From assembly GCA_022867105.1 (NCBI GenBank), contig JALHVH010000047.1, positions 1 through 31,321 on the forward strand: a DNA stretch of 31,321 nt, in the 5' to 3' direction. Positions 1 to 27,353 of the stretch are shown here, piece after piece (position 1 is the stretch's first letter; every line of letters begins with the position of its first letter). Origin of the DNA: Candidatus Aminicenantes bacterium (GTDB lineage Bacteria > Acidobacteriota > Aminicenantia > Aminicenantales > Saccharicenantaceae). The notes under the pieces are model-generated. The model saw nothing but the letters and a program-made list of their open reading frames with translations, did no database searches and was not told the DNA's origin. The translations under genes and the position numbers were made by a program.

Positions 1-1
1 C

Positions 2-1454: not shown

Positions 1455-1484
1455 GGGCAAAACCACAATCCATGAAAACCCTCT

Positions 1485-2384
1485 CTACTTTGGGTCATAT
1501 TCGACATCCCCGGTCACGATTCTTTTTTGCTGTCCGTCCTCCGTCTTCAAAATTAGACCCCCGTCCGAGTCGATATCAACAGCAATGCCCGCCCATGTCT
1601 CTCCGGAGGAAGTCACTCTGACCGGCCTCCCCTTAATTTGGGCCCGGTCTCTCCACGCCTTCAGAATAGGGGGGGCCCCCTCTTTCAAAAATATTTCATA
1701 CCAAGCTTCCAGTCTCCGTAACAGAACCTGAAAGAAACCCTTTCTCGAAACCGCCCTTCCCATCTCTTTCTTTAAAGAGGTCGCGACTTTCCGGATCTCT
1801 TTGGAAAACAACTTCCCGTCCATATTGAGGTTGACGCCAATGCCTAAGATGACAAAATGGACTCGGCCCATCCCGGAATGAATCTCATTGAGAAGCCCGG
1901 CCACCTTTCGACCTCTCAGGAGAATATCATTGGGCCATTTGATCAAAGGAAGGAGGCCGGATATCTCCTGAACGGCATCTGCTGTCGCGACCGCCGCCAT
2001 CAGGGTGAGGAGAGAGGCCTGATGGGGAGGGATCTTCGGGCGAAGAATGACGGAGAGATAGAGGTTTAAAGAAGGCGGGGAGTACCAGGGCCTTCCCAAC
2101 CTCCCTCTTCCCTTTTCCTGTGATTCTGCGACCACCACCTCCCCTTCCTCGGCACCATGGAGGGCTAACTGATAGGCCTTCGAATTCGTCGAATCAATCG
2201 TCTGAAAGTGGTGAATCGTCCTTCCCATCCATTCCGTCGTAAGAAGGGGTTTGATTTCCGACGGGGTGAGCAGATCTTGGGAAAGATCCAAACGGGATCC
2301 CGTTTGCGTTGAGGCTTCAATCTCATAGCCCGAGCTTTTCAGGCGCTTATCTCTTTGACTCACAGCCGTTCGACTTGTTTTCAA
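1485..2384 (-). CDS. birA: Biotin--[acetyl-CoA-carboxylase] ligase with truncated/degenerate N-terminal wHTH
   Basis: TIDSTN, GRGRLG biotin loop, KWPND, KVAGLL and a C-terminal SH3-like domain. TTG start with a GAGGAGG RBS, and an in-frame stop just upstream. Confidence 0.92.
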   Translation of the reverse strand: MKTSRTAVSQRDKRLKSSGYEIEASTQTGSRLDLSQDLLTPSEIKPLLTTEWMGRTIHHFQTIDSTNSKAYQLALHGAEEGEVVVAESQEKGRGRLGRPWYSPPSLNLYLSVILRPKIPPHQASLLTLMAAVATADAVQEISGLLPLIKWPNDILLRGRKVAGLLNEIHSGMGRVHFVILGIGVNLNMDGKLFSKEIRKVATSLKKEMGRAVSRKGFFQVLLRRLEAWYEIFLKEGAPPILKAWRDRAQIKGRPVRVTSSGETWAGIAVDIDSDGGLILKTEDGQQKRIVTGDVEYDPK

Positions 2385-2450
2385 TCGACGATGACCCTCC
2401 TCTCGTCAAGGCCAACGCGGCCTTTTCATGAAACAGAAGCTAGGAAGCCC

Positions 2451-3287: not shown

Positions 3288-3424
3288 CTGAATTCTTTCT
3301 CCGCTCTCTCTCGCGGTAGTTTAGCACATCTTCGGCGCCCGGTCGAGGCGATGGATGAGGCACAAGGTTCTCTTCCATCCTCACCCCAACCAAAATGGAA
3401 AAGAACCGAAGAAAAATAATGGGC

Positions 3425-3453
3425 TTGCGCGTTGAGCCAAAATTCTGTATTTT
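3425..3453 (+). promoter_or_regulatory. Putative sigma70 promoter for the acetyl-CoA hydrolase/transferase gene
   Basis: TTGCGC (3425-3430), 17-nt spacer, TATTTT (3448-3453). Sequence match only. Confidence 0.3.
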
Positions 3454-3505
3454 CTAATTGTTATCATATGAATTCATTCCACGTCATCATCTCAGGAGGA
3501 ACCAC

Positions 3506-4924
3506 ATGACTTATCAACCCCCGGTCATTAAACTCGATCAGTTGGCGGACGTCATCTCCAAGGAATTCAGGCATAAGGACACGATCACTTGTTATATCGG
3601 TTCTAATGCCGCGACGCCGACGGCTTCGCTGGAATCCCTGACGGCCGCCGTCAAGGCCGGCAGCCCCACACTGCCTTTTATCAAGATGGTTCATCTCCTG
3701 CTCCAGGGGCCCGTGCCTTACGTGGAAAAAGGACTCCAGGATCGCATCATGACCTATTCCCTTTTTTCCACGGGCGACGTGCGAAAGGCCGCCAACGAGG
3801 GACGGGCTTTTTATTTGCCGTGTACGCTGGCCAATCTTGACAGTCTGATCGGCAAAGACCGGGAGTATGAGCCGGACGTTGCCATCTTCAAAGTTCGTCC
3901 CCATGAAATCACGAAGGAATTCAGTCTGGGATTGTCCGTCGAAGTCCTGCACACGGCCATCGATCATGCCAAATGCGTTATTGCTGAGCTGGATTTCAGC
4001 ATGCCTTTCACTCAAGGTCAAAGCATCGTCGGCCCCCAATCCATTGATTACCTCATTGACGACGACGACGTGAAATGCGTCTACAATTGTCCCGCGCCCG
4101 ATTTTGACAATCTTTCCCCTGAAGAGCGGAGAATCGGTGAATTGATCACGGAACATTTTATTCGCGATGGAGTGACGTTGCAGGTTGGTATCGGGCAAAT
4201 CCCGGACGCCGTGGTGGGGACCATCAAAGGGGCGAATTATAAAGACCTCGGCATCCAGACGGAGCTTTATGGGGACGGTCTGATGCATCTGCAGAAGGCC
4301 GACATCGTGACGAATCGAAAGAAAAAGCAACATATGGGATACAGCACGACCTCCCTCATTATGGGCTCGACAGAACTGTATGAATTCGTGCATATGCGCG
4401 CGGGAATCCAGATGCGTCCCTGCACCGTCACCAACTCGGCCGAAGTCATCCGGAGGAACAGTCCCTTCGTCTCCATCAATACGGCCATGGGAGTCGATCT
4501 CTTCGGCAATGTCTGGGCCGATTATATTGATGCTCGTCGATATTACAGCGGCGTCGGCGGTCAGCCGGATTTTGTCCGCGCCTTGAATAATCCTGTCTAC
4601 GGCGTCCCCATAATTGCCTTTCGAAGCCTTACCGATAAAGGTCATTCAAAAATCGTCAAGGTCCATCCTCCCGGCGTGAGTTTGACAGCCTCGGCTTATG
4701 ATGGAGTGGTCATTGTGAGCGAATACGGTATTGCCGACCTTCGGGGACTCACCGCCGGTGAGAAAGCGCTTGCCATCGCCAGCATTGCCCATCCCCGGTA
4801 TCGCGATCAGTACCTCAAGGCCATCTATGACGATCCCCTGTTCACGAAGCCCATCGGTTCTTCCCTGGGCAAAACTCCCCGCGGAGTAACCATGTACCAG
4901 GGGAATATCAAGCTGGACGCGTAG
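3506..4924 (+). CDS. Acetyl-CoA hydrolase/transferase family protein (4-hydroxybutyrate/butyrate CoA-transferase-like)
   Basis: LQVGIGQIPDAV, GIQTELYGDG (catalytic Glu retained), GVGGQPDF and SEYGIADLRG. The start is placed at ATG 3506 behind AGGAGGA. Confidence 0.85.
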   Translation: MTYQPPVIKLDQLADVISKEFRHKDTITCYIGSNAATPTASLESLTAAVKAGSPTLPFIKMVHLLLQGPVPYVEKGLQDRIMTYSLFSTGDVRKAANEGRAFYLPCTLANLDSLIGKDREYEPDVAIFKVRPHEITKEFSLGLSVEVLHTAIDHAKCVIAELDFSMPFTQGQSIVGPQSIDYLIDDDDVKCVYNCPAPDFDNLSPEERRIGELITEHFIRDGVTLQVGIGQIPDAVVGTIKGANYKDLGIQTELYGDGLMHLQKADIVTNRKKKQHMGYSTTSLIMGSTELYEFVHMRAGIQMRPCTVTNSAEVIRRNSPFVSINTAMGVDLFGNVWADYIDARRYYSGVGGQPDFVRALNNPVYGVPIIAFRSLTDKGHSKIVKVHPPGVSLTASAYDGVVIVSEYGIADLRGLTAGEKALAIASIAHPRYRDQYLKAIYDDPLFTKPIGSSLGKTPRGVTMYQGNIKLDA

Positions 4925-4965
4925 GCTTCACAGGCATCATTTCCATTCAGCGAGAGCGACCGGCC

Positions 4966-5736
4966 CTATCTCAAAAAGATTCTCTCCGGATCAACTTCCT
5001 CGCGGAGAATGCGTAATTCTTGTTGGGTCGGCGGCGCTGTCTTGGCGGCGTCCTCGATATCCAGGGTGAAGCCGGTCGCCTCAGCGACGGCCTGAGGAGT
5101 CACGTCCGGGTGGTAACTGGCCAAATAGATGGCTTTCGTATCCGGACGGAAGCGCATCACGCCCATGGTGGTGACCACGACGCTCGGCCCGCCTCGGCCA
5201 AGACCGGACATTTGACGGCTGTTTCCGCCTTCAAGCCATCCGGGGCTGGTGATGTAGTCCACCTTTTCCGGGAAGCGTCGTTTTTCGTGCTTGGCGATGA
5301 TAATGGTTCGGCTGGCGAGGCAGGCGATGTCGCAGGCACCGCCGCTCCCGGAGAAACGCACGGTCGGATGGCGGTGATCGGATCCAATCGAAGTGCTGTT
5401 GATGTTTCCGAAGCGATCCACCTGCGCTCCGCTTAAAAAGCCGACATCGACCCGTCCTGCCTGCAGCACGAAGGTGAAGACCTCAAGGAGTCCGGCGGCG
5501 GTGGCCGCCCCGCGCATCGCGCGTGGATCCCCGACCGACATCGGAAGATGGGCGAGTTGACTGGCCATCGTCCCCGCCTCAAAAATGACGATGCCATTGG
5601 GAGCATGAGTGCGCTGGGCCAGCATCACGCCGAGCATGGGCAGGCCGGTGCCGGCGAAAACCACCTCGCCATCCACGATCTCGCGGGCGGCGACGACCGC
5701 CATCAGTTCTGTCAAAGTATATTCGGGGATTGCCAT
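4966..5736 (-). CDS. gctB: Family I CoA-transferase beta subunit, glutaconate CoA-transferase (GctB)-like
   Basis: GTGLP, IFEAG (Glu at the GctB catalytic position), GAQVDRFGNINST, GSGGA, HEKRRF and VDYITSPGW. GGAGGAG RBS. Confidence 0.85.
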   Translation of the reverse strand: MAIPEYTLTELMAVVAAREIVDGEVVFAGTGLPMLGVMLAQRTHAPNGIVIFEAGTMASQLAHLPMSVGDPRAMRGAATAAGLLEVFTFVLQAGRVDVGFLSGAQVDRFGNINSTSIGSDHRHPTVRFSGSGGACDIACLASRTIIIAKHEKRRFPEKVDYITSPGWLEGGNSRQMSGLGRGGPSVVVTTMGVMRFRPDTKAIYLASYHPDVTPQAVAEATGFTLDIEDAAKTAPPTQQELRILREEVDPERIFLR

Positions 5737-5738
5737 GG

Positions 5739-6704
5739 CTACAATCTCCTCCGCTTCAGGTTGGGGCTATAACCATAGGCCGGCGACGCTTTCAATGTTT
5801 TGAGCCGCGCCTGGCCGCCCACCGCTTCCAGGTATTCGTTGTGATCCTTGACGCCGCAGACATACTTTTCCAGGTAATCCTGGAAACTTGCGTCATCGTG
5901 CACGCCTTCGTGGTACTCTTTCAATTGGAGAGGATCATAATCATAGTAGTTGTAAACGGCATAAGGGTGGGCCCCAAAGGGGACATGGCAGACGTGTTTC
6001 ACGGTGAAGAATGGGATCGGGTTGCGTTCCGGTTCGCGGCGCAGCATGTCCTCATCAACAAGCTCTTCGGCGGTCACGATCACGGTATCGGCGCACAGGG
6101 CCTGCTGAATATCGGCGAAGGTCTGACCCTCGATCCGCACCATGCCGTTGGCCGTTGCCTTCTGGACATGCAGCACGGCGAAATCGGTGTGGATCGCTGG
6201 AACCAATACGACCTGCTCCCGGCCATCGAAGGGCGAGGTCATCACATGCAGTTTCTTTGGCGAGGTGCGCGGATCGGCCTTCCGCTGCTCAGGCCCAAGG
6301 GCCTCTTTGCGCAGCACGTCGCTCCCGAGCAGGCTGCGAACGGGCATAAAGGGAATTCCCATGGCGCCTGCGGTGAAGCGTGCCACCATCGTGAAGTTGC
6401 TGTAATCCTCCCACTCGATCTCGCCCCGTTCCACGGCCTGCCGCCAGCGGGGCCCAACCGTGTTGAAAGCCTCATCAGCTTCGTAGGCCAGTTCGACCCG
6501 CTTCACGCAACCCGCCCCAATGAGAATGTCCCAATCCCCTCCGGGTGAATGTCCAAACAGATAAAGACTGCGTCTTTTCAGGCGGATCAGTTCATAGACA
6601 AAGGCCATGGGATGACGCTGGGTGGTGAAACCGCCGAAGGAAATCGTTGCGCCATGAGGAACCAAAGCGGCCGCCGCGTGAAGGTCCATCATTTTGCCGG
6701 TCAT
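5739..6704 (-). CDS. gctA: Family I CoA-transferase alpha subunit, glutaconate CoA-transferase (GctA)-like
   Basis: ISFGGF..RHPMA, EDYSN, AGAMGIPFMPV and PFGAHP. AAAGGAGG RBS; lies 2 bp from the beta subunit. Confidence 0.85.
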   Translation of the reverse strand: MTGKMMDLHAAAALVPHGATISFGGFTTQRHPMAFVYELIRLKRRSLYLFGHSPGGDWDILIGAGCVKRVELAYEADEAFNTVGPRWRQAVERGEIEWEDYSNFTMVARFTAGAMGIPFMPVRSLLGSDVLRKEALGPEQRKADPRTSPKKLHVMTSPFDGREQVVLVPAIHTDFAVLHVQKATANGMVRIEGQTFADIQQALCADTVIVTAEELVDEDMLRREPERNPIPFFTVKHVCHVPFGAHPYAVYNYYDYDPLQLKEYHEGVHDDASFQDYLEKYVCGVKDHNEYLEAVGGQARLKTLKASPAYGYSPNLKRRRL

Positions 6705-6739: not shown

Positions 6740-6768
6740 AATCTATATCAACTTCACCCTGAAATCAA
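6740..6768 (-). promoter_or_regulatory. Putative sigma70 promoter for gctAB
   Basis: On the minus strand: TTGATT (6768-6763), 17-nt spacer, TAGATT (6745-6740). Confidence 0.4.
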
Positions 6769-6897
6769 CGTGATGAAAGTTCAGGAGTTCCCCCAGGGAC
6801 GCTCTTCCGCTAAAGAAATCTGCGATCCGGAGAAAACTTGACTTTAGGTTCAAATTATGGAATGATACTTTCCCATTTTAATATTAATACAAGTCCT

Positions 6898-6927
6898 TTG
6901 TTATTTGCTATTTAGCGCATTTATAAT
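6898..6927 (+). promoter_or_regulatory. Putative sigma70 promoter for the HMGCS-thiolase-MCC operon
   Basis: TTGTTA (6898-6903), 18-nt spacer, perfect TATAAT (6922-6927), in an AT-rich divergent intergenic region. Confidence 0.5.
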
Positions 6928-6973: not shown

Positions 6974-8020
6974 ATGGCTGGAATCATCGGCTATGGGGCC
7001 TACATCCCGCGAAACCGGATCAAAGTCGAGGAGATCGCCAAAGTCTGGGGAGCGGACGCGCCGAGCTATAAAAAAGGGCTCATGCTCGAAGAGAAATCCG
7101 TGCCCTCTCCCGATCAGGATACGATCACCATGGCGGTGGAGGCTTCGAAGCGCGCCTTGAAGAGGGCGGGCATCGACCCCAAGGAGATCGGCGCCGTTTA
7201 TGTCGGCTCGGAATCCCATCCCTATGCCGTGAAACCGAGCGGCACGGTGCTCGCGGAAGCGCTTGACGCCACGCCCGAAGTCCATACGGCGGATTTCGAA
7301 TTCGCCTGTAAGGCCGGGACCGAGGCGATGTTCGTGGCCCTGAGCCTGGTCCAGGCGGGCGCGATCAAATTCGGCCTGGCCGTCGGAGCCGACACGTCGC
7401 AGGGTGCGCCCGGCGACGCGCTCGAATATTCGGCCGCTGCCGGTGCCGCCGCTTTCATTTTCGGCAAGGACCCCATCGTCGCCGAAGCGCTCGATACTTT
7501 TTCCTTCACCACGGACATGCCGGATTTCTGGCGCCGCGAATACCAGTATTATCCCCAACACGGAGGCCGGTTCACGGGCGACCCCGCCTACTTCAAGCAC
7601 ATTATGGGCGCGGCCGAGGGCATCATGGCCAAGGCCAAGATGAAGCCTTCCGATTTCCAATACGTGATCTTCCACCAGCCCAACGGCAAATTCCCGTTCC
7701 GGGTGGGTGAGATGCTGGGATTTGAGAAAAAACAGATCGAACCGGGCTGGCTGGTTCCCAAACTGGGAAATACGTACTCCGGATCATCCCCGCTCGGCCT
7801 GACGGCGACGCTGGATATCTCCAAGCCCGGAGACATGATCCTGATCGTCTCCTACGGGTCGGGAGCCGGCAGCGATGCCTTCATCTTCAGGGTGACGAAG
7901 CGGATTGATGAAGTGAGGGACTTGGCTCCCAAGACAAGAACCCTTCTGGACACCAACAAGAATTACCTGGAGTACGGCGTTTATGCCAAATACCGCCGTA
8001 AGATCCGGAAGGCAGAATAG
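6974..8020 (+). CDS. mvaS: Hydroxymethylglutaryl-CoA synthase, archaeal type
   Basis: GIIGYGAYIP, GSES(Glu)HPYAVKP, EFACKAGT (catalytic Cys), GGRFTG.PAYF, FHQPNGKF (His), GNTYSG and SYGSGAGSD. About 348 aa. AAAGGAGG RBS. Confidence 0.93.
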   Translation: MAGIIGYGAYIPRNRIKVEEIAKVWGADAPSYKKGLMLEEKSVPSPDQDTITMAVEASKRALKRAGIDPKEIGAVYVGSESHPYAVKPSGTVLAEALDATPEVHTADFEFACKAGTEAMFVALSLVQAGAIKFGLAVGADTSQGAPGDALEYSAAAGAAAFIFGKDPIVAEALDTFSFTTDMPDFWRREYQYYPQHGGRFTGDPAYFKHIMGAAEGIMAKAKMKPSDFQYVIFHQPNGKFPFRVGEMLGFEKKQIEPGWLVPKLGNTYSGSSPLGLTATLDISKPGDMILIVSYGSGAGSDAFIFRVTKRIDEVRDLAPKTRTLLDTNKNYLEYGVYAKYRRKIRKAE

Positions 8021-8029
8021 GAGGCGGCG

Positions 8030-9184
8030 ATGAGAAACGTAGCTGTCATCGGTGTCGGCATGACCAAATGGGGCGAACTCTGGGAGAAATCCCTGAGGGA
8101 TATCTTTGTTGAGACGGCCCTCCTGGCGATCGAGGACGCCGGCGTGGACCGGATTGACTCGATGTATGTCGGCTGCATGTCCTCGGGTCTTTTCATTGGC
8201 CAGGAGCATTTGGCATCCCTCTTGCCCGACTATCTCGGCAGGAATCCCGTTCCGGCAGTGCGCGTGGAGTCCGCCTGCTCGTCGGGCGGCCTGGCCCTCC
8301 GGCAGGGATTCATCGATGTGGCCTCGGGGATGAGCGATATCGTGCTCGTCGGCGGCGTCGAAAAGATGACCGACGTCAACGGTCACGAAGCCACATACGC
8401 ATTGGGCACGGCAGCCGACCAGGAATATGAAAGCTATCACGGCCTGACGTTTCCGGGGCTCTATGCCATGATGGCCCATGCCCACATGGCGAAATACGGC
8501 ACGACACGGGAGCAGTTGGCCATGGTGGCCGTCAAGAACCATGACAACGGCTCGAAGAACCCTCTGGCCCAATTTCCCTTTAAGATCACCGTGGAAGGCG
8601 TCTTGGGCTCCGTTCTCGTCGCCGATCCGCTGCGGGTCCTGGATTGCTCTCCCATCACGGACGGAGCGGCGGCCGTCATCCTCTGTCCCTCGGACATGGC
8701 CAAGCGGATGAAAAAGCCTGCGGTAAGAATCGCGGGAAGCGGCCAGGCCACGGACACCATCGCCCTCAGTTCGAGAAAGGACATCACCTGGATTGAATCC
8801 ACCCACATCGCCGCCCAAAAAGCCCTGGCGATGGCCGGCCGGAAAGTCGAGGATATCGACCTCTTCGAGGTCCACGACTGTTTCACTATAGCCGAAATCA
8901 TGGTCTCGGAGGCGCTGGGCATCGTCGAGAGGGGACAGGGCGGAAAGGCCGTCCAGGAAGGGCTGACGTCGCTCCAGGGAAAATTCCCGGTCAACCCCAG
9001 CGGCGGTTTGAAAGCCAAGGGCCATCCGGTCGGCGCGACCGGTGTCGCCCAGGCCGTCGAGGTCGTCAAGCAGCTCCGCGGAGAAGCGGGGGCGAGGCAG
9101 GTCGGGGGCGCGAAACTCGGGCTGACCCAGAACATGGGCGGCACGGGGGGAAGCTCGGTCGTCCACATCTTCGAGGCGGAGTGA
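8030..9184 (+). CDS. Acetyl-CoA acetyltransferase (archaeal/SCP2-type thiolase)
   Basis: VESACSSGG (catalytic Cys), [34 protein letters not shown] and NMGGTG. Confidence 0.9.
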
Positions 9185-9196
9185 GAGGAGGACAAG

Positions 9197-9589
9197 ATGC
9201 CGACACCATCAAGATACTGGCGAGAGATCCCTCAGAGGTACCGGCTTGAAGCCGGAAAATGCGCGAGCTGTGGGTACGTCTGTTTCCCGCCCCGCCTGAT
9301 TTGTCCGCGGTGCGGCAGCCAGGAATTCGCAAAGACGAAGCTCGCGGATTCCGGAAAAATCCTCACCTACACAATCATCCGCGTCGCTCCGCATCAGTAT
9401 GTCGACCAGGCGCCCTACGCCGTCGGCATCGCCGAGCAGGATGACGGCGTGAAGCTGACGGCCCAGATCGTCGACTGCAATTTCGAGGATTTGAAGATCG
9501 GGATGCGGGTCAAAATTGAATTCCGGAAAATTTACGAGGAAGGGGAAGCCGGCGTCATCTACTACGGATATAAATTCGTCAAAGAATAA
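9197..9589 (+). CDS. DUF35 family Zn-ribbon/OB-fold protein (thiolase-HMGCS scaffold)
   Basis: CASC-x10-CPRC Zn ribbon followed by an OB fold (GKILTYTII...PYAVGI...GMRV). It follows the thiolase directly. Confidence 0.9.
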
Positions 9590-9617
9590 ACGCCGCCGCC
9601 GAGCGAAAGGACGGGCG

Positions 9618-11225
9618 ATGTTCAGAATCGAATCCAAAGTCGACACCCAAAGTCAGGATTACAGGCAGAATCTCGAGCATATGACGAAAGTCGTGGCCGA
9701 GTACAAGGAGCGCCTGGCCAAGGTTCAGGCGGGAGGGTCGGCTAAGTACCGCGAGCTTCACAAGTCCCGCGGCAAGCTTCTCGTCCGGGAGCGATTGGAT
9801 AAGCTTTTCGACCGCAACACGCCGTTCCTGGAGCTCAGCGCCCTGGCCGCCAACGGCATGTACGAGGACGAAGCCCCCGGGGCGAGCATGGTCACGGGCG
9901 TCGGCGTCGTTCGCGGCCGCGAAGTGCTTGTTGTGGCCAACGACGCCACGGTGAAAGGCGGCACCTATTTCCCGATAACCATCAAGAAGCACCTCCGCGC
10001 CCAGGAGGTGGCCCTCGAAAACCGGCTGCCCTGCATCTACCTGGTCGATTCCGGCGGTATCTTTCTCCCCCATCAGGCGGGGACGTTCCCCGACAAGGAG
10101 CATTTCGGACGGATCTTCTATAACCAAGCCCGCCTCTCCGCGCTCGGCATCCCGCAGATCTCGATCGTCATGGGATCGTGCACGGCCGGCGGCGCCTATG
10201 TCCCGGCGATGAGCGACGAGACGGTCATCGTCCGCCGGCAGGGGACGATTTTCATTGGAGGTCCGCCGCTGGTCAAAGCGGCCACGGGCGAGGAGGTTTC
10301 GGATGAGGACTTGGGCGGCGCCGACGTCCACTGCCGCATCTCCGGCGTTTCGGACTATTACGCGTTGAACGATGAGCACGCGCTCGAAATCGCCCGGAAT
10401 ATTGTCGAGACGCTCGCCCCGCCGTGCCGGTTCGTGCTGAATACAGCCAAGCCTGAAGACCCGGATTATGATCCTGCAGAGATGTACGGCATCGTGCCGA
10501 GGGATTTACGGAAGGCCTTTGATATCAAAGAGCTCATCGCCCGGATTGTGGACGGAAGCCGTTTCCAGGAGTTCAAGGAGCTCTACGCCCAGACGCTGGT
10601 CTGCGGGTTCGCCCGCATCATGGGCTATCCCGTGGGCATCCTGGCCAACAACGGCGTGCTTTTCTCTGAAAGCTCGCTCAAGGGTGCGCATTTCATCACC
10701 CTCTGCGCTATGCGCAAGATCCCGCTCGTCTTTCTCCAGAACATCACCGGCTTCATCGTCGGCAAGCAGTACGAGCATCGCGGCATCGCCAGGGACGGGG
10801 CGAAGCTTGTCCATGCCGTAGCCAACGCCGACGTGCCCAAATTCACGGTCATCGTCGGCGGCTCCTACGGCGCAGGCAACTATGCCATGTGCGGCCGTGC
10901 CTACGATCCGCGCCTGCTCTGGATGTGGCCCAACGCGCGAATCGGCGTCATGGGCGGCGAGCAGGCGGCCAATGTCCTAGTCTCCGTGAAAATCAAGAAG
11001 CTCCAGGAACAGGGCGTCAAAATGACCGAGGAAGAGAGGGAAAAGATGATCAGACCCATCCTGGACACATACGAAGCGGAGGCCAGCCCGTATTTCAGCA
11101 CGGCCAGGCTATGGGACGACGGCCTCCTCGACCCCCTCGAGACGCGGCAGGCGCTAGCGCTCGGAATCGCCATGAGCCTGAACGCTCCCATTCCGGATTT
11201 CAAGGTCGGAATCTTCAGGATGTGA
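9618..11225 (+). CDS. liuB: 3-methylcrotonyl-CoA carboxylase beta (carboxyltransferase) subunit
   Basis: [16 protein letters not shown]...[55 protein letters not shown] and STARLWDDG. The start is placed at ATG 9618. Confidence 0.88.
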
Positions 11226-11267
11226 CAGCCAAGTTCTGATGATGATCGTGATGAACGGCGAACTCAA

Positions 11268-12059
11268 GTGAAAGAAAAAAAATACGAAACGATCATTCTG
11301 TCGCTCGAGGACAAGGTCGGCCGCGTCTGGCTCAACCGGCCCGAAATCCACAACGCGTTCAACGTCGTCATGATTCGGGAACTCCGGGACGCCATCCGGA
11401 CCCTCGGCGCGGATGAAGCTGTCCGGGTCGTCGTTCTCTCCGGCAAGGGGAAGTCATTCTGCGCGGGCGCGGATTTAAATTGGATGCGGGAGATCATCAC
11501 TTATTCCTACGAGCAGAACCTCCGGGAATCGCTCGAGCTGGCCGAGTTCCTGTATGAGCTTTACGCCCTGCCCAAGCCAACGATCGCCCGGCTGAACGGG
11601 GCCGCTATCGGAGGCGGCGCGGGTTTCCTCTCCGCCTGCGACATCGCTGTCGCTTCGGCCGACGCGCAGCTCGGCCTGAGCGAAGTGAAAATCGGCCTGG
11701 TGCCGGCCTGTATAGCCCCTTATGTGCTGCGGAGAACCGGGGAGAGCCGGGCCCGCCGGTTATTCCTGACGGGCGAGCGGTTCGACGCCAAGCGGGCGGC
11801 GGAGATCGGCCTGGTTGACGAGGTCGCCGCGCCCGCAGATCTGGACGGAAGGGTCGATGACATCGTCGGCCGCCTCCTATCGTCAGGACCCGAAGCGCTG
11901 GCCTGTTGTAAGGAGCTTCTCCGGAGGGTTCCCGGGATGAGCTTCGAGGACGTCAAGCGCTTCACGGCGGAGATGATCGCCGGGCTCCGGGTCAGCCGGG
12001 AAGGCCAGGAGGGTATGGCCGCCTTCCTGGAAAAAAGAAAGCCAAGATGGACCGACTGA
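11268..12059 (+). CDS. liuC: Enoyl-CoA hydratase/isomerase, methylglutaconyl-CoA hydratase-like
   Basis: LNRPEIHNAFN, FCAGADL, AIGGGAG and SEVKIGLVPACIAPYV. It sits between the MCC subunits, as in liu/yng operons. Confidence 0.8.
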   Translation: MKEKKYETIILSLEDKVGRVWLNRPEIHNAFNVVMIRELRDAIRTLGADEAVRVVVLSGKGKSFCAGADLNWMREIITYSYEQNLRESLELAEFLYELYALPKPTIARLNGAAIGGGAGFLSACDIAVASADAQLGLSEVKIGLVPACIAPYVLRRTGESRARRLFLTGERFDAKRAAEIGLVDEVAAPADLDGRVDDIVGRLLSSGPEALACCKELLRRVPGMSFEDVKRFTAEMIAGLRVSREGQEGMAAFLEKRKPRWTD

Positions 12060-12140
12060 AGTCTTTGTGGTTGTCTTTCGTGAAAAGGGATGGGGGAATT
12101 TGCCGGCATGATGGAATGATCATGATCTTGGGGAAGCGAG

Positions 12141-13667
12141 ATGTTTAAGAAGGTTTTAATCGCCAACCGGGGCGAGATCGCCGTCAGGGTGATCAGGGCC
12201 TGCCGTGATATGGGGATTGCGACGGTGGCCGTCCATTCTGAGGCGGATAAACTGAGCCTCCATGTCCAGCTCGCCGACGAAGCCGTCCCCATCGGACCGG
12301 CTCCTGCCGCCGAGAGCTACCTCAACATGGCCCGGATCATCCGGGCCACTCATGACACCCGCTCCGAAGCCATCCACCCCGGCTATGGTTTTCTGGCGGA
12401 AAACGCAGACTTCGCCCGGCTCTGCGAGAAAGAAGGCATCGTTTTCATCGGGCCCAACTCCGGAGCGTTGGCGCTGGTGGGCGACAAGGTCCGCGCCCGC
12501 CAGACGATGGAGAAAGTCGGTATTCCGATCATCCCGGGAATGAAGGCCATTCCTAAATCTGTGACGGAATTCGAAGTCGCGGCGCGATCCATCGGATATC
12601 CGGTGATCGTCAAAGCTTCGGCCGGAGGCGGCGGAAAAGGGATGCGCATCGTCTGCGGGGAAAAGGACCTGAGGCCGGCTCTCGAGGCGGGGATGCGGGA
12701 AGCCAAGTCCGCTTTCGGCGATGAGTCGGTGTATCTCGAAAAATATATCGAAGAGCCCCGGCATGTTGAGTTCCAGGTCCTGGCCGACAACGCCGGCGCG
12801 ATGGTCCATCTTTTCGAGCGGGAATGCTCGATCCAAAGGCGCCACCAGAAAATCGTCGAGGAGACGCCCTCTCCGGCCCTGGACCCGGACCTGCGGGCCC
12901 GGATGGCGGAGACGGCCAAAAAAGCGATGCGGGCGGCAGGCTACAACAACGCCGGCACCGTCGAGTTCCTCCTGGATAAAGATCGCAACTTTTACTTCCT
13001 GGAAGTGAACGCCCGGCTCCAGGTCGAGCATCCTGTGACGGAGATGGTGACGGGCGTGGACTTGGTCCGCCGGCAGATCCTGATCGCGGCCGGGGAAAAA
13101 TTGACTTTAAGGCAGGAGGATCTCCGCCAGAGGGGGCATGCCATTGAATGCCGGATCTACGCCGAGGATCCGGAGAACAATTTCCTTCCTTCTTCCGGCA
13201 AGATCTTGTTCCTCAAAGAGCCGCAGGGCCCGGGAGTCCGCTATGATGGCGGCATTTACGGAGGCTGGGAAGTCCCGATTTATTATGATCCGATCCTGGC
13301 GAAGCTGATTGTCTGGGCCGAAGACCGGGAAATGGCTTGCCGGAGGATGGCCGCCGCGCTGGACGACTTTGTGATCCTGGGAATTCACACGACGATCGAT
13401 TTTCTCAAAGACATCATCCATCATCCGGAGTTCCGGGCCGGCCGGACAAACACGGCGTTCATCAAGAATTATTTCGACGGATGGAAAGAGAGCGGGAAAA
13501 ACGAAGACAAGCTGCGACTGGCCCTGGCTGCGGCCGCTTTTGATGACATGGCCGCGGCGACGCGCCCGGGAGGCGGTCCGGCCCGGGAAGCGAAAGAAGA
13601 CGCCGCAGCGCCCTGGAAGACATTGGGCCGGTGGAGGATCGGAGGAGCCGGGTCTCATGGAATTTGA
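12141..13667 (+). CDS. Biotin carboxylase subunit of acyl-CoA carboxylase (MCC alpha, N-terminal part)
   Basis: VLIANRGEIA, HPGYGFLAEN, KASAGGGGKGMR, ERECSIQRRHQK, FLEVNARLQVEH and YYDPILAKL. It has no biotinyl domain. Confidence 0.92.
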   Translation: MFKKVLIANRGEIAVRVIRACRDMGIATVAVHSEADKLSLHVQLADEAVPIGPAPAAESYLNMARIIRATHDTRSEAIHPGYGFLAENADFARLCEKEGIVFIGPNSGALALVGDKVRARQTMEKVGIPIIPGMKAIPKSVTEFEVAARSIGYPVIVKASAGGGGKGMRIVCGEKDLRPALEAGMREAKSAFGDESVYLEKYIEEPRHVEFQVLADNAGAMVHLFERECSIQRRHQKIVEETPSPALDPDLRARMAETAKKAMRAAGYNNAGTVEFLLDKDRNFYFLEVNARLQVEHPVTEMVTGVDLVRRQILIAAGEKLTLRQEDLRQRGHAIECRIYAEDPENNFLPSSGKILFLKEPQGPGVRYDGGIYGGWEVPIYYDPILAKLIVWAEDREMACRRMAAALDDFVILGIHTTIDFLKDIIHHPEFRAGRTNTAFIKNYFDGWKESGKNEDKLRLALAAAAFDDMAAATRPGGGPAREAKEDAAAPWKTLGRWRIGGAGSHGI

Positions 13668-14163
13668 GTTTCTCATCGACGGCGCTCTCAGGAAGATTTC
13701 CCTGGAGAAAAAGGAAAAGACGTACGTTATCCGGGATGGAGAGACGATCCTTGAAACCGAAATCAGGCCTGTCTCCGAAAACGAGTTGATGTTCCTCGCA
13801 GGCGGCCGGTCCTCGAGGGTCTATATCGCCCGGGACGGAGAGCGAAGGCTCGTTTTTACAGGGGGCCGCAAGTTCGTCGTCTGCGAATCCCTTCATGAGG
13901 CCGGGCATTTAATCGGCGGGGATGAGAGGACGCCCGAGGGAGGGCGGCATGTAAAAGCGCCCATGCCGGGGAAGGTCATCAAGCTGAATGTCGCTGAAGG
14001 CGAAGACGTGAGGAAGAACCAGACCCTGGTGATCGTCGAAGCGATGAAGATGGAAAACGAGATCAAATCCGCGATCGAGGGCACCATAAAAAAAATTCAT
14101 GTGGCGGCCGGCGATCTGGTCGATTCGGAGAAGTCGCTGATCGAGATCGAGCCAAAACGCTGA
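13657..14163 (+). CDS. Biotin carboxyl carrier protein with N-terminal BT-like beta region
   Basis: APMPGKV and EAMKMENEI (biotinyl-Lys). It has its own RBS (GGAGGAG) and ATG 13657, overlapping the previous stop by 11 nt. Confidence 0.88.
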   Translation: MEFEFLIDGALRKISLEKKEKTYVIRDGETILETEIRPVSENELMFLAGGRSSRVYIARDGERRLVFTGGRKFVVCESLHEAGHLIGGDERTPEGGRHVKAPMPGKVIKLNVAEGEDVRKNQTLVIVEAMKMENEIKSAIEGTIKKIHVAAGDLVDSEKSLIEIEPKR

Positions 14164-14201
14164 GCGGAGGCCATAATAAAAATCGGCATATGTTCGCTGA
14201 T

Positions 14202-14217
14202 TTTAGGCTTGCCTAAA
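14202..14217. promoter_or_regulatory. Perfect palindrome TTTAGGC-TT-GCCTAAA upstream of the acyl-CoA dehydrogenase
   Basis: 7-bp arms with a 2-nt spacer in an 85-bp intergenic gap. Function unknown. Confidence 0.35.
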
Positions 14218-14248
14218 GCCTCAGCCAGGAGCTGAAAAGGAGGGAACG

Positions 14249-15391
14249 ATGACGCCTGAAACGCTGGAAACCTTGAATGAATGCCGGGAGATGGTGCGGG
14301 ATTTCGCCCGCACGGAAATCGCCCCCCATGTCCGGGAATGGGACGAAAAGGCCCATTTTCCCCACGGCATCCTCCGCCGTCTTGGCGAACTTGGGCTGAT
14401 GGGGATCCTGATTCCGGAAGAGCTCGGCGGAGCCGGGCTGACCTATCGGCATTACGTGGCGATCCTGGAAGAACTGGGGGCCGTCGAGGGCGGAATCGCC
14501 CTCTCGGTAGCAGCCCACAATTCCCTGTGCACGAACCATGTTTTCTTATTCGGGACCGATGAGCTGCGCCGCCGGTGGGTGCCCCGGCTGGCGTCCGGAG
14601 AAGTCATCGGCGCGTGGGGATTGACGGAACCCGAGGCCGGGTCCGACTCCGGCGCGACCAAGACCATGGCCGTCCGCGACTCCGGCGGCTGGGTTTTAAA
14701 CGGCACCAAAAATTTCATCACGCATGCCGGAGCCGGAGGGATCGCGGTGGTGATGGCGCGGACGCAGCCGGGGAAGGACCATCACGGCATCTCTGCGTTC
14801 CTCGTCCCGCTCGACGTCCCCGGTGTCACGGTCGGAAAACACGAAGATAAGATCGGCATGCGCATTTCCGACACGGCCTCGTTGATCTTCGAAGACTGCC
14901 GCATCGGAGGGGACGCTCTCCTGGGTAACGAAGGCGACGGGTTCATCCAGGCCATGGTTGTCCTCGAAGGCGGCCGGATTTCAATCGCCGCCCTTTCTGT
15001 GGGGATCGCCCGGGGAGCTCTCGACGCGGCCGTTGCTTATGCCAAGCAGCGCCGTCAATTCGGGAAGTCCATCGCGGCTTTTCAAGGCATCCGTTTCAAG
15101 CTGGCCGACATGGCCACCCACGTCAGCGCCGCCCGGCTGCTCACCGAATCCGCGGCCGACGATAAGGACGCGGGGCGGAAGACCACCCTGATCTCATCGC
15201 AGGCCAAGCTTTATGCTTCGGAAGTCGCCGTTAATGTGGCGGAGGAGGCCGTCCAGATCTTCGGCGGATACGGCTACTGTAAGGATTATCCGGTCGAGAA
15301 GTTCTGGCGCGACGCCAAGCTGTGCACGATCGGAGAGGGCACGAGCGAGATCCAGCGCCTGGTGATCGCCCGGGAGCTCATCGGGGAATAA
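14249..15391 (+). CDS. Acyl-CoA dehydrogenase (probably isovaleryl/branched-chain, by context)
   Basis: [45 protein letters not shown] and [22 protein letters not shown]. Confidence 0.9.
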
Positions 15392-15420
15392 AGACCCGGC
15401 TTATTTCTCCCAATTGAAGA

Positions 15421-16668
15421 TCATTCGGCGCGGCGATAGACGATGGCCGTGACCGTTTTATCGTTTCCGCCCATGTTGACGGACAGCGCATAGGGGCGGT
15501 CCGGGGAAATCGGGATTTGCCAATTTCCCGCTTTCCCTGTCAGCTGCTGCCAGATGGTGACGGCCTGCCTCACTCCCGTGCCGCCTGTGGGATGTCCCCA
15601 GCCGATCAGCCCGCCGGACGTGTTGACAGGCAAAGTTCCCTGGCGCGAGGTATTCCCAGCTAAAACATAATCAGCCCCTTCGCCTTTCCCGGCCAGCCCG
15701 ATCGCCTCCACGGATAAGAGACCGGAAATCGTGAAGCAGTCATGGCATTCCACGGTCCCCAGCTCCTGGAGAGGAATTCCCGCGCACTCCAAGGCTTTTT
15801 TCACAGCTCTAGCCGTCGTTTCGAGCCGGGTCGGATCTTCCGGAGGAATCGTCAGATCCGCTTCAACCTGCCCCCAGCCGACGACTTCCACGGCGTCGGA
15901 TTTAGGGATTCCAATCCGTTTCAAGCCTTTTTCGGAGACGATGGCGATGGCGGACCCCGCGTCGGAGACTTTGGAGCAGTCAAAGACATTCAAGTGGTCA
16001 ACGAACGTCCGGGGATTCGGTTCCGTTAAGGCCAATGATTCGAGATTTTCCGCGGTATTATGGAATTCCTGGGCGGTTTCGCAGAGCCGGGCGTTTTCGA
16101 TGGCGTTCCGGTACCAGCGGGCGAAAGCTTGCCGCGTTTTCTCCCGGCCGTATTTTTCGAAATAGGCCCCCGCCCGGTCGCTGAAGGCCGCCGGGAAGAA
16201 ATAGGCGTGACCTTTCTTGCGTTCACCCCTGAACCAGCCGGCGCCGGCCAAGATGTCCGCTCCATAAATGGCCTTGACGGTGTTCTGGACTTCGACACCG
16301 ATCGCCAGGACGACATCGGCCGTTTCGGCGAGCACGGATTTCATCCCGGCAGCCAGTCCCAGCCCACCGGAGCCGCAGGCCCCTTCCACCCGGCAGCACG
16401 GTTTCCATCTCAAGTCATCATCCACATAGGGAATCAGGGCGGCTAGGTTGCCCTGCTTATTGAAGCGGGCCGCCATGAAATTGCTGATCACCCCTTCATC
16501 GACGTTCTTCCCTCCGCCGATTTGCTTCAAGGTCCCTTGGCCCGCTTCCCGGATGTATTCCTCAAGGCCCGGCCGGGGCTTTTTGGGATGGAATTCCTTC
16601 CGGCCCGTTCCCAGGGAGATGGTGTTGTATCCCGCCGTCATGAAGACTTTTCGCCGGCTTTTTTTCAT
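15421..16668 (-). CDS. 3-ketoacyl-CoA thiolase (SCP2/archaeal-like type)
   Basis: VEGACGSGG, DCSKVSDAGSA, ECHDCF, GGLIGWGHPTGGTG and NMGG. Confidence 0.85.
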   Translation of the reverse strand: MKKSRRKVFMTAGYNTISLGTGRKEFHPKKPRPGLEEYIREAGQGTLKQIGGGKNVDEGVISNFMAARFNKQGNLAALIPYVDDDLRWKPCCRVEGACGSGGLGLAAGMKSVLAETADVVLAIGVEVQNTVKAIYGADILAGAGWFRGERKKGHAYFFPAAFSDRAGAYFEKYGREKTRQAFARWYRNAIENARLCETAQEFHNTAENLESLALTEPNPRTFVDHLNVFDCSKVSDAGSAIAIVSEKGLKRIGIPKSDAVEVVGWGQVEADLTIPPEDPTRLETTARAVKKALECAGIPLQELGTVECHDCFTISGLLSVEAIGLAGKGEGADYVLAGNTSRQGTLPVNTSGGLIGWGHPTGGTGVRQAVTIWQQLTGKAGNWQIPISPDRPYALSVNMGGNDKTVTAIVYRRAE

Positions 16669-18017
16669 GGCCTGCTCTCTCCATTAAAATAATTGTTGAT
16701 CGGGCCGTAGGCATGGAAAAAGCCCGTCAGCAATACGGTATTGACGTCCTCTTCCCGGTCGGCGACTTTCTCGTTCACGAGCTCAAGGCCGATTTCCTTG
16801 GATTTCCGTCCATATCTTTTGGCTAAATCCGCGCCCAGGGTGTTCATCTTTTTCAGCTGCCGGAAATAGCCCTCCAGGAAATTTATCCTGTCGGGATGTT
16901 GGATCACACTTTTCCACGGCTTGGCTTGACCCGGCAGGACGCCCAACGCTTCATCACCGCGTCCCGCGATCTCCGAGAAGGGCGCGTAGGCCTGTTTTTC
17001 AGGATCAAATACGCCGTTGGGCCGTCCCTTTTCATATTTCAGGAATCCGTCCTTCTGGGACCCATCGGCGTATTGCCCGCCGGCAATCCCCAGGGAGATC
17101 AACCTGTCCACGAGAAAGCTGTGGAGCCGGCCTCCCGGGAGACGCTCGTTCATCACGCGCAAGATGCATTGGCAGATGTCGAGGCCCACGTAATCGATCA
17201 GTTGGAAAATCCCCATGGGACGGATCAGAAAATCCTGACTGACCTTATTCACCATATAGATCGCGTCGACCAGGCCGAAATCTTCGGCGAGCCGTTCGAC
17301 CTCAGCGACGGCATACAAGGCGTCCCTCATGAAGTGCCCGTTCCCGATGAAACCCGCGACGTCATGGGAAGGCACAACGGTTTTCCGCAACTTTTTGGCG
17401 AATTGCCTGGCAAAATCCGCAAGGTCGGGAAGAGTGGATTTCGCCGAAATCAATTCTACGAGTTTTTGAACGGCCGGAGGGTTGTAGAAGTGAAATCCGA
17501 TGAGGCGGCCGTTCAAATTCGCTTTGGCGTTCAATTCGGAAATGGGAATGGAAGACGTATTGGAAAAAAACCAGGCGTCCCGCGAGTTGTGAGAGATGAT
17601 CCGGGAGAGGAGCTCGACTTTGATGTCCAGGTTTTCATGAATCGCTTCAAACACCAGGGTGGAATGATAGGAGGTCTCGATCTCGGTGGCCGGACGGACG
17701 ATGGCCAGAACGTCCTCGATATATTGATTGATCACGTCCTCGTTTTCAATCAAATCCTCCCGCTTTTCATAGGCTTTCCGGAGCCAAGCCGCCTTTTGTT
17801 CCGCGGTCCGCTGGACCTGGGAGCGCAGGTATTTCAACAATCCCGAAAGGGCTTTCTGAGAAATATCCACGGCCTGGAGAGTAAAGGCCAGAGATTCGTA
17901 TCCGGGCTCCAGGCTCAGATCGGCCATTTCCATGGCCGCGAGCAGAACAATGCCCCTCCCCATTTTCCCCGCGGCCCCCAAAACGGTGACATTTTCAAGT
18001 CGCTCGGCATAATTCAT
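16665..18017 (-). CDS. 3-hydroxyacyl-CoA dehydrogenase family protein (atypical, 450 aa)
   Basis: Rossmann GAAGKMGRG, EAIHENLDIK, SNTSSIPI, GFHFYNPP (catalytic His), GFIGN and MGIFQLIDYVGLD. Confidence 0.85.
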   Translation of the reverse strand: MNYAERLENVTVLGAAGKMGRGIVLLAAMEMADLSLEPGYESLAFTLQAVDISQKALSGLLKYLRSQVQRTAEQKAAWLRKAYEKREDLIENEDVINQYIEDVLAIVRPATEIETSYHSTLVFEAIHENLDIKVELLSRIISHNSRDAWFFSNTSSIPISELNAKANLNGRLIGFHFYNPPAVQKLVELISAKSTLPDLADFARQFAKKLRKTVVPSHDVAGFIGNGHFMRDALYAVAEVERLAEDFGLVDAIYMVNKVSQDFLIRPMGIFQLIDYVGLDICQCILRVMNERLPGGRLHSFLVDRLISLGIAGGQYADGSQKDGFLKYEKGRPNGVFDPEKQAYAPFSEIAGRGDEALGVLPGQAKPWKSVIQHPDRINFLEGYFRQLKKMNTLGADLAKRYGRKSKEIGLELVNEKVADREEDVNTVLLTGFFHAYGPINNYFNGESRP

Positions 18018-18041
18018 CGATGTCCCTCGGCTCCTTCGAGA

Positions 18042-18815
18042 TCAGCTTTTCCATTGGGGTGCACGTTTTTCCAGGAAGGCCCGCATCCCCTCTGCCCCCT
18101 CGTTTTCAAAGAGCGAACCGAACATTCCGGATTCCAGAGCGCAGCCGGCTTCGAAATCCATCAGGAATCCTTGACGGGTGACTTGTTTGACCAGTTTGAC
18201 GGCCCGGGGACCTTTGGAGGCGATCGTTTTTGCCAGTCCAAGGGCCGCCGGCATGAGCTCGTCGGGTTCCACGATTTTTTGGACCAATCCCATGCGCAGA
18301 GCGTCTTCGGCGCCGATCATCTCCCCCGTCAGGAGCAGGAACAGGGCGTTCCCGAGACCGATGAGCCTGGGAAGCCTCTGTGTCGCGGCATAGCCTGGGA
18401 TCACGCCCAGATTGACTTCAGGTTGGCCGAATTTGGCTTTGGCGCTGGCAATCCGGAAGTCGCAAGCCAGGGCCAGCTCGCAGCCTCCGCCGAGGGCAAA
18501 TCCGTTCACCGCCGCGATCACCGGCTTTGCGAGAAGCTCCAGGCTCCGGAATGTCCGCTGGCCCACCTTAGAGAATTGGGCGGCTTGGTCCCGGGTTTTA
18601 TCAACCATTTCGGCAATGTCGGCCCCCGCAGCGAACGCCTTTCCTTCACCCGTGATAATCAAGACTTTGATATCATCCCGTGCGCCGATCTCGGCGATCA
18701 GGTTGTCCATCTCCTGGAAAAAACGCGAGTTCAAGGCGTTCAAAGCCTGGGGCCTGGAGATGGTGACAGTGGCGATACCTTCCGCCGCTTCCATTTTCAG
18801 GATTTCATACGGCAT
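18042..18815 (-). CDS. crt: Enoyl-CoA hydratase (crotonase)
   Basis: RPQALNALN, FAAGADI, ALGGGCE and GQPEVNLGVIPG. Both catalytic Glu residues are present. Confidence 0.9.
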   Translation of the reverse strand: MPYEILKMEAAEGIATVTISRPQALNALNSRFFQEMDNLIAEIGARDDIKVLIITGEGKAFAAGADIAEMVDKTRDQAAQFSKVGQRTFRSLELLAKPVIAAVNGFALGGGCELALACDFRIASAKAKFGQPEVNLGVIPGYAATQRLPRLIGLGNALFLLLTGEMIGAEDALRMGLVQKIVEPDELMPAALGLAKTIASKGPRAVKLVKQVTRQGFLMDFEAGCALESGMFGSLFENEGAEGMRAFLEKRAPQWKS

Positions 18816-18826
18816 GCCTTTCCTCC

Positions 18827-19972: not shown

Positions 19973-20384
19973 GATACGTCTTTCTCCTCTCCTGAATGGT
20001 TTTCTGGATATATTCAACGATATCTTGAATATCCTCGCCCGGGCCGAAAACTTTTCCGACTCCCAATTCTTTCAGTTTTTCCTGATCTTTCGTGGGAATG
20101 ATTCCGCCTCCCGTCAACAGGCAATCGCCGAGGCCGGACTTTTCCATGAGTTCCTTGACCCGCTTGAAATGGGTCATATGGGCCCCCGACAAGATCGAGA
20201 GGCCGATGACATCGGCGTCTTCCTCGACGGCAGCCTGGACGATGGATTCCGGCGTCTGCTGCAGCCCGAGGTAAACAACTTCCATGCCGGCTTCCACCAG
20301 GGCGCGGGCGACGATCTTGACTCCGCGATCATGGCCGTCCAGCCCCGGCTTGGCGATGATGACTTTGATTTTTGGATCGGCCAT
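19962..20384 (-). CDS. icmB: Cobalamin-binding small subunit of acyl-CoA mutase
   Basis: [11 protein letters not shown] (DxHxxG), [10 protein letters not shown] and GGGIIP. Confidence 0.88.
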
Positions 20385-20409
20385 CTCTCTTTCCTCTTGC
20401 TAAGAAATT

Positions 20410-26180: not shown

Positions 26181-27353
<1,173 letters not shown>

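Follow-up and report, generated by a model that had tools for sequence, protein, structure and literature searches.

An archaeal-type HMG-CoA synthase complex linked to methylcrotonyl-CoA carboxylase in Aminicenantes: a possible lyase-independent ending for leucine and isovalerate catabolism

In a 31,321-nucleotide stretch of DNA from an uncultured sediment bacterium, Candidatus Aminicenantes (contig JALHVH010000047.1 of assembly GCA_022867105.1; here, the window), positions 6974 to 15391 carry an operon in which homologs of the archaeal thiolase/3-hydroxy-3-methylglutaryl-coenzyme A (HMG-CoA) synthase/DUF35 complex are joined to the genes of a methylcrotonyl-CoA carboxylase (MCC). The reading we favor, to which we give somewhat better than an even chance, is that the operon specifies a catabolic route for leucine/isovalerate with the triad running backwards, i.e., HMG-CoA + 2 CoA -> 3 acetyl-CoA. 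The window corresponds to contig C260 of a metagenome-assembled genome (G000) of 2.49 Mb in 483 contigs, 92.8% complete and with 5.1% contamination. Among the homologs of the window HMGCS, the names given for the source are Candidatus Aminicenantales and Acidobacteriota.

Results and Discussion

Gene content of the operon

Gene identities were assigned from the listing of open reading frames (ORFs) and from Pfam and NCBIfam scans of the window ORFs. The eight genes all lie on the + strand, with intergenic gaps of 9, 12, 28, 42, 81, -11, and 85 bp.

6974..8020, +, archaeal-type HMG-CoA synthase (HMGCS), 348 aa; TIGR00748, 540 bits (cutoff, 353)
8030..9184, +, SCP-x/archaeal-type acetoacetyl-CoA thiolase, 384 aa; PRK06064, 562 bits
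9197..9589, +, DUF35 scaffold protein, 130 aa; CxxC...CxxC zinc ribbon and OB fold
9618..11225, +, MCC-beta (carboxyltransferase), 535 aa
11268..12059, +, crotonase-family hydratase, LiuC/AtuE-like, 263 aa; NF004227, 280 bits (under the cutoff of 426)
12141..13667, +, biotin carboxylase (BC, ATP-grasp) subunit, 508 aa; TIGR00514, 650 bits
13657..14163, +, biotin carboxyl carrier protein (BCCP), 168 aa; a 168-aa homolog is present in the closest relative, L002
14249..15391, +, acyl-CoA dehydrogenase (ACAD), 380 aa; Pfam/NCBIfam
6898..6927, +, best sigma-70-like promoter match, TTGTTA-18-TATAAT, 47 bp upstream of the HMGCS start (consensus scan only, weak)

For MCC-beta, the ATG at 9618 gives a 535-aa product that matches its homologs, while the longest ORF begins at 9516; the last 11 bp of the BC gene are shared with the start of the BCCP gene. 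The family identities and the measured gaps bear out the original prediction of eight co-oriented genes spaced by 86 bp or less, and its statement that the window contains no HMG-CoA lyase also holds, no window ORF matching the HMGL-like family.

Compared with the solved complex from Methanothermococcus thermolithotrophicus (6ESQ), the three window proteins score 461 bits (HMGCS versus 6ESQ_I), 386 bits (thiolase versus 6ESQ_A), and 108 bits (DUF35 versus 6ESQ_E), and by this homology the triad is orthologous to it; the three proteins are presumed to form a complex here as well. The E-C-H-N catalytic motifs of HMGCS and the ACSSG Cys, HDCF, and GHP motifs of the thiolase are present in the window proteins, and the DUF35 zinc ribbon is retained. 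Among bacterial homologs, the HMGCS tetrad is kept in 62/62 and the thiolase HDxF and GHP motifs in 61/61, with the Cys motif found in 54 of these 61. The HMGCS tetrad and the thiolase HDxF are lost in the neofunctionalized Phl/Muc acyltransferases (PMC12960953). HMGCS is, moreover, the best conserved gene of the block, with a median identity of 73.5%.

The carboxyltransferase at 9618 to 11225 scores 727 bits against Pseudomonas aeruginosa MCC-beta and 718 against human MCC, compared to 463 against geranyl-CoA carboxylase (GCC) and at most 275 against propionyl-CoA carboxylase (PCC), which identifies it at the sequence level as an MCC-beta ortholog. The PDB matches of the hydratase are generic crotonases, and its best NCBIfam model is the LiuC/AtuE-type one listed above; it is presumed from its context to be the 3-methylglutaconyl-CoA hydratase. 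The role of the ACAD is likewise assigned from context. It scores 337 to 401 bits against short-chain acyl-CoA dehydrogenase (SCAD)/Bcd proteins versus 255 to 273 bits against isovaleryl-CoA dehydrogenase (IVD), and it follows BCCP in the nearest relatives only, outside the conserved core.

Conservation of the triad-MCC arrangement

A scan with one genome per species recovered 80 loci in which HMGCS is 68 to 90% identical to that of the window. They come from Aminicenantes, Zixibacteria, Ignavibacteria, Eisenbacteria, Coatesbacteria, Glassbacteria, Planctomycetota, Elusimicrobiota, and others. Fifty-five of the loci were informative, that is, they contained the full triad plus at least 2 kb of downstream sequence. 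MCC-beta lies immediately 3' of DUF35 in 33 of the 55 and within 10 kb in another 12, while 10 showed none; triad-MCC linkage is thus seen in 45/55 informative loci from at least eight phyla, and the predicted synteny of HMGCS, thiolase, DUF35, and MCC proved to be conserved. The recurrent order is triad-MCC-beta-hydratase-BC-BCCP, and no locus that extends far enough lacks the ATP-grasp BC subunit. On a 3.3-Mb contig whose HMGCS is 87% identical to that of the window, the order is the same, including the upstream CoA-transferases. Because MCC-beta directly follows DUF35 in 33/55 loci and is within 10 kb in 12 more, this comparison indicates that the arrangement is not due to chance and that triad and MCC form one conserved unit. 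No lyase homolog was found within 10 kb in any of the 80 related loci.

Among the 21 closest relatives, 13 carry the triad, and five triad-less relatives also lack MCC-beta; triad and MCC are therefore present or absent together among close relatives. One member of the same genus (G254), with a high-scoring lyase and no triad, was considered as a possible case of an MCC-linked lyase swapped for the triad and discarded as such, no MCC being found there. Accessory genes were also explored as a clue to direction and dropped: by ORF clustering, the neighbors in the 80 loci are housekeeping genes (sigma/anti-sigma factors, HtrA, DnaK/J, ClpB, lipoate ligase) plus some beta-oxidation genes, and they say nothing about direction.

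Transcription

In two sediment metatranscriptome runs, both from one study, contigs 90 to 97% alike to the operon tile across it. Single RNA contigs bridge thiolase-DUF35-MCC-beta (8857 to 9883) and the stretch from MCC-beta to the start of ACAD (10847 to 14308), which fits cotranscription in a close relative. The RNA contigs leave a gap at 6757 to 6828, and depth differs from gene to gene; neither feature enters the evidence here. In a consensus scan, promoter-like sites on the + strand were found solely just upstream of HMGCS, the better of them being that at 6898 to 6927, and none inside the operon. Terminator-like matches in the window were not more common than in shuffled sequence.

Complementary distribution of the triad and canonical HMG-CoA lyases

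In whole-genome searches of 39 genomes with the synteny, an HMG-CoA lyase above cutoff was found in 4, a strong match to HMG-CoA reductase (HMGR) in 8, and neither in 27. The two halves of the operon must exchange HMG-CoA, since in most carriers this intermediate connects to the hydratase and HMGCS only. Four closed chromosomes are among the genomes searched. Two (G027 and G032) have no HMG-CoA lyase match above cutoff, no CitE/HpcH-like lyase, and no HMGR, and two others (G004 and G019) have no HMGL-like (PF00682) gene whatsoever.

To set the triad against the lyase, we took an even sample of the phylum comprising 201 genomes, 68 of which have an MCC-beta ortholog (at least 54% identity); this sample shares some genomes with the synteny set. 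Seventeen of the MCC-positive genomes have an archaeal-type HMGCS. Seven of these have a lyase above cutoff, all of the low-scoring type (252 to 289 bits), and none has a high-scoring one, defined as reaching at least 300 bits. The other 51 lack the archaeal-type HMGCS, and here the corresponding figures are 41 with any lyase above cutoff and 36 with a high-scoring one, a contrast whose weight the 2-by-2 counts overstate, as relatedness makes the genomes nonindependent. It holds equally without G072, an unpublished genome among the 51 (any lyase, 40/50; high scoring, 35/50). HMGCS is on the same contig as MCC-beta and within about 3.5 kb of it in 14 of the 17 triad-bearing genomes, and at least 28 of the 36 high-scoring lyases in the triad-less ones are no more than about 6 kb away from MCC-beta. 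These data support the view that the triad occupies the place of the lyase in canonical clusters and that its distribution is complementary to that of canonical lyases, in line with the anticorrelation that had been predicted. A separate pattern was noted in family f24 of the sample (e.g., G068, G085, and G101), which has an archaeal-type HMGCS and no lyase, and whose carboxyltransferase is just 45 to 49% identical to MCC-beta and encoded on a contig other than that of HMGCS.

A nonorthologous HMG-CoA-cleaving enzyme, for example a CitE/HpcH-like one, might instead end the pathway, with the triad contributing thiolase activity or HMG-CoA for another purpose. There is a precedent in the CitE/HpcH-like Rv2498c of Mycobacterium tuberculosis (PMC6689899), and HpcH-like genes do occur in G004, G019, G033, and G036. 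The M. tuberculosis route, however, proceeds through (R)-HMG-CoA and a MaoC-type hydratase while the operon has a crotonase, and the 80 loci show no linkage of such a gene with the operon. PF03328 searches of G000 and of the closed G027 and G032 gave no match, and a CitE-type lyase was rejected on this basis as a general substitute. We assign this explanation a low probability.

The HMG-CoA lyase of the host genome

The original prediction started from the absence of a lyase in the window and asked for a search of the full genome. That search showed that the genome as a whole is not lyase-free. The sole PF00682 match of G000 is an HMG-CoA-lyase-family protein on another contig, C184, which scores 285 bits against a cutoff of 246 and 207 bits against Bacillus subtilis YngG (1YDO), with its RDGLQ, HFHNT, and GGCP motifs intact. 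Contamination was rejected as the source of this contig, its GC content and tetranucleotide use fitting G000. The lyase adjoins a family III CoA-transferase; among solved structures, this transferase is best matched by succinate-hydroxymethylglutarate CoA-transferase (SUGCT; PDB 9BR6, 269 bits).

Contig C184, L001:198-2334, -, SUGCT-like CoA-transferase plus lyase module

The two genes are adjacent wherever their neighborhood was examined, in seven other genomes and two relatives, and the C184-type lyase is also present in four genomes of the same class without MCC and HMGCS. Because the pair is conserved and its lyase also occurs in genomes lacking MCC and HMGCS, it looks like an independent module, separate from the operon, and it may plausibly serve a free dicarboxylate such as 3-hydroxy-3-methylglutarate instead. 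It matches a known combination, SUGCT with HMG-CoA lyase, in both its members, and it differs from the operon in being a two-gene module on another contig that is present without MCC in some genomes.

Could the pathway nevertheless end in the canonical way? The C184 lyase would then yield acetyl-CoA and acetoacetate, a CoA-transferase encoded upstream of the operon (the acetyl-CoA transferase or the GctAB-like pair) would reactivate the acetoacetate, and the operon thiolase would cleave acetoacetyl-CoA, leaving HMGCS idle, regulatory, or employed for another purpose. The above-cutoff score and intact motifs of the lyase and the genome-like composition of C184 speak for this, as do the CoA-transferases directly upstream of the operon. 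Against it stand the pairing of the lyase with the SUGCT-like transferase in each of the eight genomes that have it, its occurrence in the four genomes without MCC and HMGCS, and its absence (above cutoff) from 35 of the 39 genomes that have the same operon. A canonical ending also leaves HMGCS, the most conserved gene of the block, unexplained, and forward HMGCS acting together with a lyase would merely hydrolyze acetoacetyl-CoA. We therefore regard it as unlikely. As to the proposal that the triad stands in for the lyase, synteny, complementary distribution, and copresence with MCC are in its favor, although this genome is not free of lyase.

No mevalonate pathway to supply in this genome

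It had also been suggested that the operon shares an HMG-CoA pool with mevalonate synthesis. In its fullest form, leucine carbon via MCC and acetyl-CoA via the triad would converge on HMG-CoA and feed HMGR. This fails in G000, where neither HMGR nor mevalonate kinase was found above cutoff in an assembly with about 7% of the genome missing, while Dxr and IspH of the methylerythritol phosphate (MEP) pathway are both present; for this reason we conclude that the triad, which includes the only archaeal-type HMGCS of the genome, does not feed a mevalonate pathway here. Of the 39 synteny genomes, 31 likewise yielded no HMGR, and Dxr is present in all 12 of the HMGR-free ones tested. The points in favor are the strong HMGR matches in the other 8, in three of which no Dxr was found, and the leucine-to-sterol shunts of trypanosomatids (PMC5993337). 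In the HMGR-bearing genomes without a found Dxr, the complex probably runs forwards. As an explanation of the operon, supply of mevalonate synthesis is highly improbable. Four Zixibacteria (G019, G023, G025, and G028) and one acidobacterium (G036) have both HMGR and Dxr alongside the triad-MCC operon; the HMGR of the Zixibacteria is encoded by open frames of about 770 to 820 aa.

Direction of flux

In the favored catabolic reading, isovaleryl-CoA would be oxidized by the ACAD with an electron transfer flavoprotein (ETF), and the resulting methylcrotonyl-CoA would be carboxylated by the ATP-dependent MCC and hydrated to (S)-HMG-CoA. HMGCS working in reverse would then convert HMG-CoA and CoA to acetoacetyl-CoA plus acetyl-CoA, and thiolysis with another CoA would give two more acetyl-CoA. 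No free acetoacetate would arise, all three C2 units would leave as thioesters, one more than by the lyase route, and acetate kinase could convert these into ATP. Both the direction of flux and the energetic benefit are inferred.

Both the extra thioester kept and the energetics were counted in favor of this reading. The HMGCS reaction is exergonic by an amount similar to the uphill cost of the thiolase. Thiolase condensation has been put at +25.2 kJ/mol, and thiolysis hence at -25.2 kJ/mol (PMC10562921). As thiolysis would roughly offset the uphill reversal of HMGCS, the sum of the two reactions should be near equilibrium, and channeling would solve the same problem of low acetoacetyl-CoA in either direction.

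The opposite direction would make the operon anabolic, 3 acetyl-CoA -> HMG-CoA -> methylglutaconyl-CoA -> methylcrotonyl-CoA -> isovaleryl-CoA, with MCC as an ATP-yielding decarboxylase and the product used as an iso-fatty acid primer, as an electron sink, or for leucine via reductive carboxylation. There is precedent for the first two steps, as HMGCS followed by LiuC-type dehydration is established in the alternative isovaleryl-CoA biosynthesis (AIB) of Myxococcus and in caprazamycin biosynthesis (PMC5389471, PMC9636800). The Bcd/SCAD-like ACAD and an ETF-alpha with a ferredoxin domain in the window, as in enoyl-CoA-reducing bifurcating systems, point the same way. So does the apparent lack of isopropylmalate synthase (IPMS): PF00682 searches for isopropylmalate, citramalate, or homocitrate synthase gave nothing in G000 beyond the lyase and nothing in the closed G004 and G019. 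Such bacteria may be auxotrophic for leucine or may have a different way of making it. LeuB and LeuC models gave below-cutoff homologs only, as in archaeal controls. That the operon itself is a de novo route to leucine in IPMS-less organisms, from 3 acetyl-CoA via isovaleryl-CoA and a 2-oxoacid:ferredoxin oxidoreductase with MCC running backwards, we consider very unlikely.

What favors catabolism over the anabolic route is that the ATP-dependent BC subunit is always retained. The decarboxylating biotin enzymes known to us are without BC, and we know of no BC-bearing biotin carboxylase that acts physiologically as a decarboxylase. Since BC and BCCP are kept throughout, carboxylation and hence catabolism is indicated, and a biotin ligase near the operon was also counted in favor of carboxylation. 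G000 encodes acetate kinase, five 2-oxoacid:ferredoxin oxidoreductase alpha homologs, and two ELFV dehydrogenases; we counted the acetate kinase and the several oxidoreductases for catabolism. Further against the anabolic route, Myxococcus uses AibAB in place of MCC, and the CoA-transferase pair next to the operon is GctAB-like (210 and 217 bits versus 91 and 57 bits against AibAB) with a Glu at the expected catalytic position, a combination that ruled out AibAB-like identity. No AibC-type or other reductase of the medium-chain dehydrogenase/reductase or alcohol dehydrogenase (MDR/ADH) type for methylcrotonyl-CoA was found among the window ORFs scanned, and the ACAD falls outside the conserved core. 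Taken together, we deem an anabolic role quite unlikely.

A number of points weigh against catabolism with a reversed complex. The host genome itself encodes an HMG-CoA-lyase-family protein with intact motifs on a contig of genome-like composition. Neither the hydratase nor the ACAD has an equivalog-level match, the relatedness of the genomes inflates the lyase contrast, and three synteny genomes have HMGR and no Dxr that could be found. The RNA contigs are similar rather than identical to the operon and come from a single study, with DNA carry-over possible. The hydrolytic release step of HMGCS is usually treated as irreversible, and we know of no experiment showing HMGCS to run backwards in vivo. 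In labeling experiments with Trypanosoma brucei, the thiolase/HMGCS bridge operated only towards HMG-CoA (PMC5993337).

Relation to known systems and significance

The likeness to the archaeal complex extends to the same three genes in adjacent positions (gaps of 9 and 12 bp) with the catalytic tetrad, HDxF, and zinc ribbon kept. The archaeal complex, however, leads into the mevalonate pathway, while its counterpart here belongs to a bacterium with the MEP pathway and neither HMGR nor mevalonate kinase; its sole metabolic neighbor is the leucine pathway, through linkage with MCC and the hydratase, and the direction proposed is the reverse of the archaeal one. With liu-type clusters (Pseudomonas liuABCDE, Bacillus yng, and Desulfococcus multivorans) the operon shares an MCC-beta ortholog, a crotonase, BC plus BCCP, and an ACAD. 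It differs from them in having the triad in the lyase's place, in the splitting of MCC-alpha into separate BC and BCCP genes, and in an ACAD that is SCAD/Bcd-like and not an IVD ortholog. The anaerobic isovalerate cluster of D. multivorans uses the canonical lyase HmgL (PMC5109826). The AIB pathway of Myxococcus xanthus (MvaS, LiuC, AibA/B, and AibC; PMC5389471) likewise joins HMGCS and methylglutaconyl-CoA hydratase to isovaleryl-CoA metabolism. In contrast to AIB, the operon has an archaeal-type HMGCS with thiolase and DUF35 and a full ATP-dependent MCC where AIB has AibAB, with no AibC in the window.

A mechanistic analogy is offered by reversed citrate synthase, where a Claisen-type synthase with a supposedly irreversible hydrolytic step conserves the thioester in place of a lyase. 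In the reversed oxidative tricarboxylic acid (roTCA) cycle of Desulfurella and Thermosulfidibacter, reversal of citrate synthase has been demonstrated experimentally. That enzyme belongs to an unrelated family, and what is experimental there is inferred here. We found no paper in a searchable literature library linking DUF35 or archaeal-type HMGCS with MCC or isovalerate.

If the favored reading is true, leucine/isovalerate breakdown in many uncultured anaerobes would end without free acetoacetate and with an additional thioester per molecule, worth up to one further ATP, which would help explain isovalerate fermentation near the thermodynamic limit. It would also add a second case to that of reversed citrate synthase, in which a synthase held to be irreversible acts as an energy-conserving lyase. 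For Aminicenantes, Zixibacteria, and related bacteria of sediments and digesters, genome-based metabolic models would then need changing, as they would now score the pathway incomplete or misassign the triad to mevalonate synthesis.

Genes flanking the operon

The flanks constitute a short-chain and branched-chain acyl-CoA island. Upstream lie the following genes.

5739-6704, -, GctA-like glutaconate-CoA-transferase-like protein, divergent from the operon
4966-5736, -, GctB-like glutaconate-CoA-transferase-like protein, divergent from the operon
3458..4924, +, acetyl-CoA hydrolase/transferase family protein, butyryl-CoA:acetate CoA-transferase-like
1485..2384, -, biotin protein ligase, BirA-like

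The GctAB-like pair (4966..6704) is conserved in L002 only, and the CoA-transferase at 3458..4924 is a candidate for isovalerate activation.

Downstream, a convergent operon on the - strand (15421 to 25320) encodes ETF-beta, ETF-alpha, MeaB, the large and small subunits of an acyl-CoA mutase, an ACAD, a crotonase, a 450-aa 3-hydroxyacyl-CoA dehydrogenase, and an SCP-x thiolase. Its ETF-alpha bears an N-terminal 2x[4Fe-4S] ferredoxin domain, and by its gene content the region resembles a beta-oxidation set of the isobutyrate/butyrate type, its ETF being CarE/LctC-like and possibly bifurcating. It is followed at 25373 to 27512 (-) by two long ORFs (159 and 476 aa) without a Pfam or NCBIfam match, the 476-aa one overlapping a 400-aa ORF on the + strand, so that either could be the coding strand. 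The GC content is about 0.53 at window positions 1 to 5000 versus about 0.60 over the operon (7000 to 16000), and the tetranucleotide correlation of the window to the genome mean is 0.938, at the low end for the large contigs of the assembly (5th percentile, 0.921).

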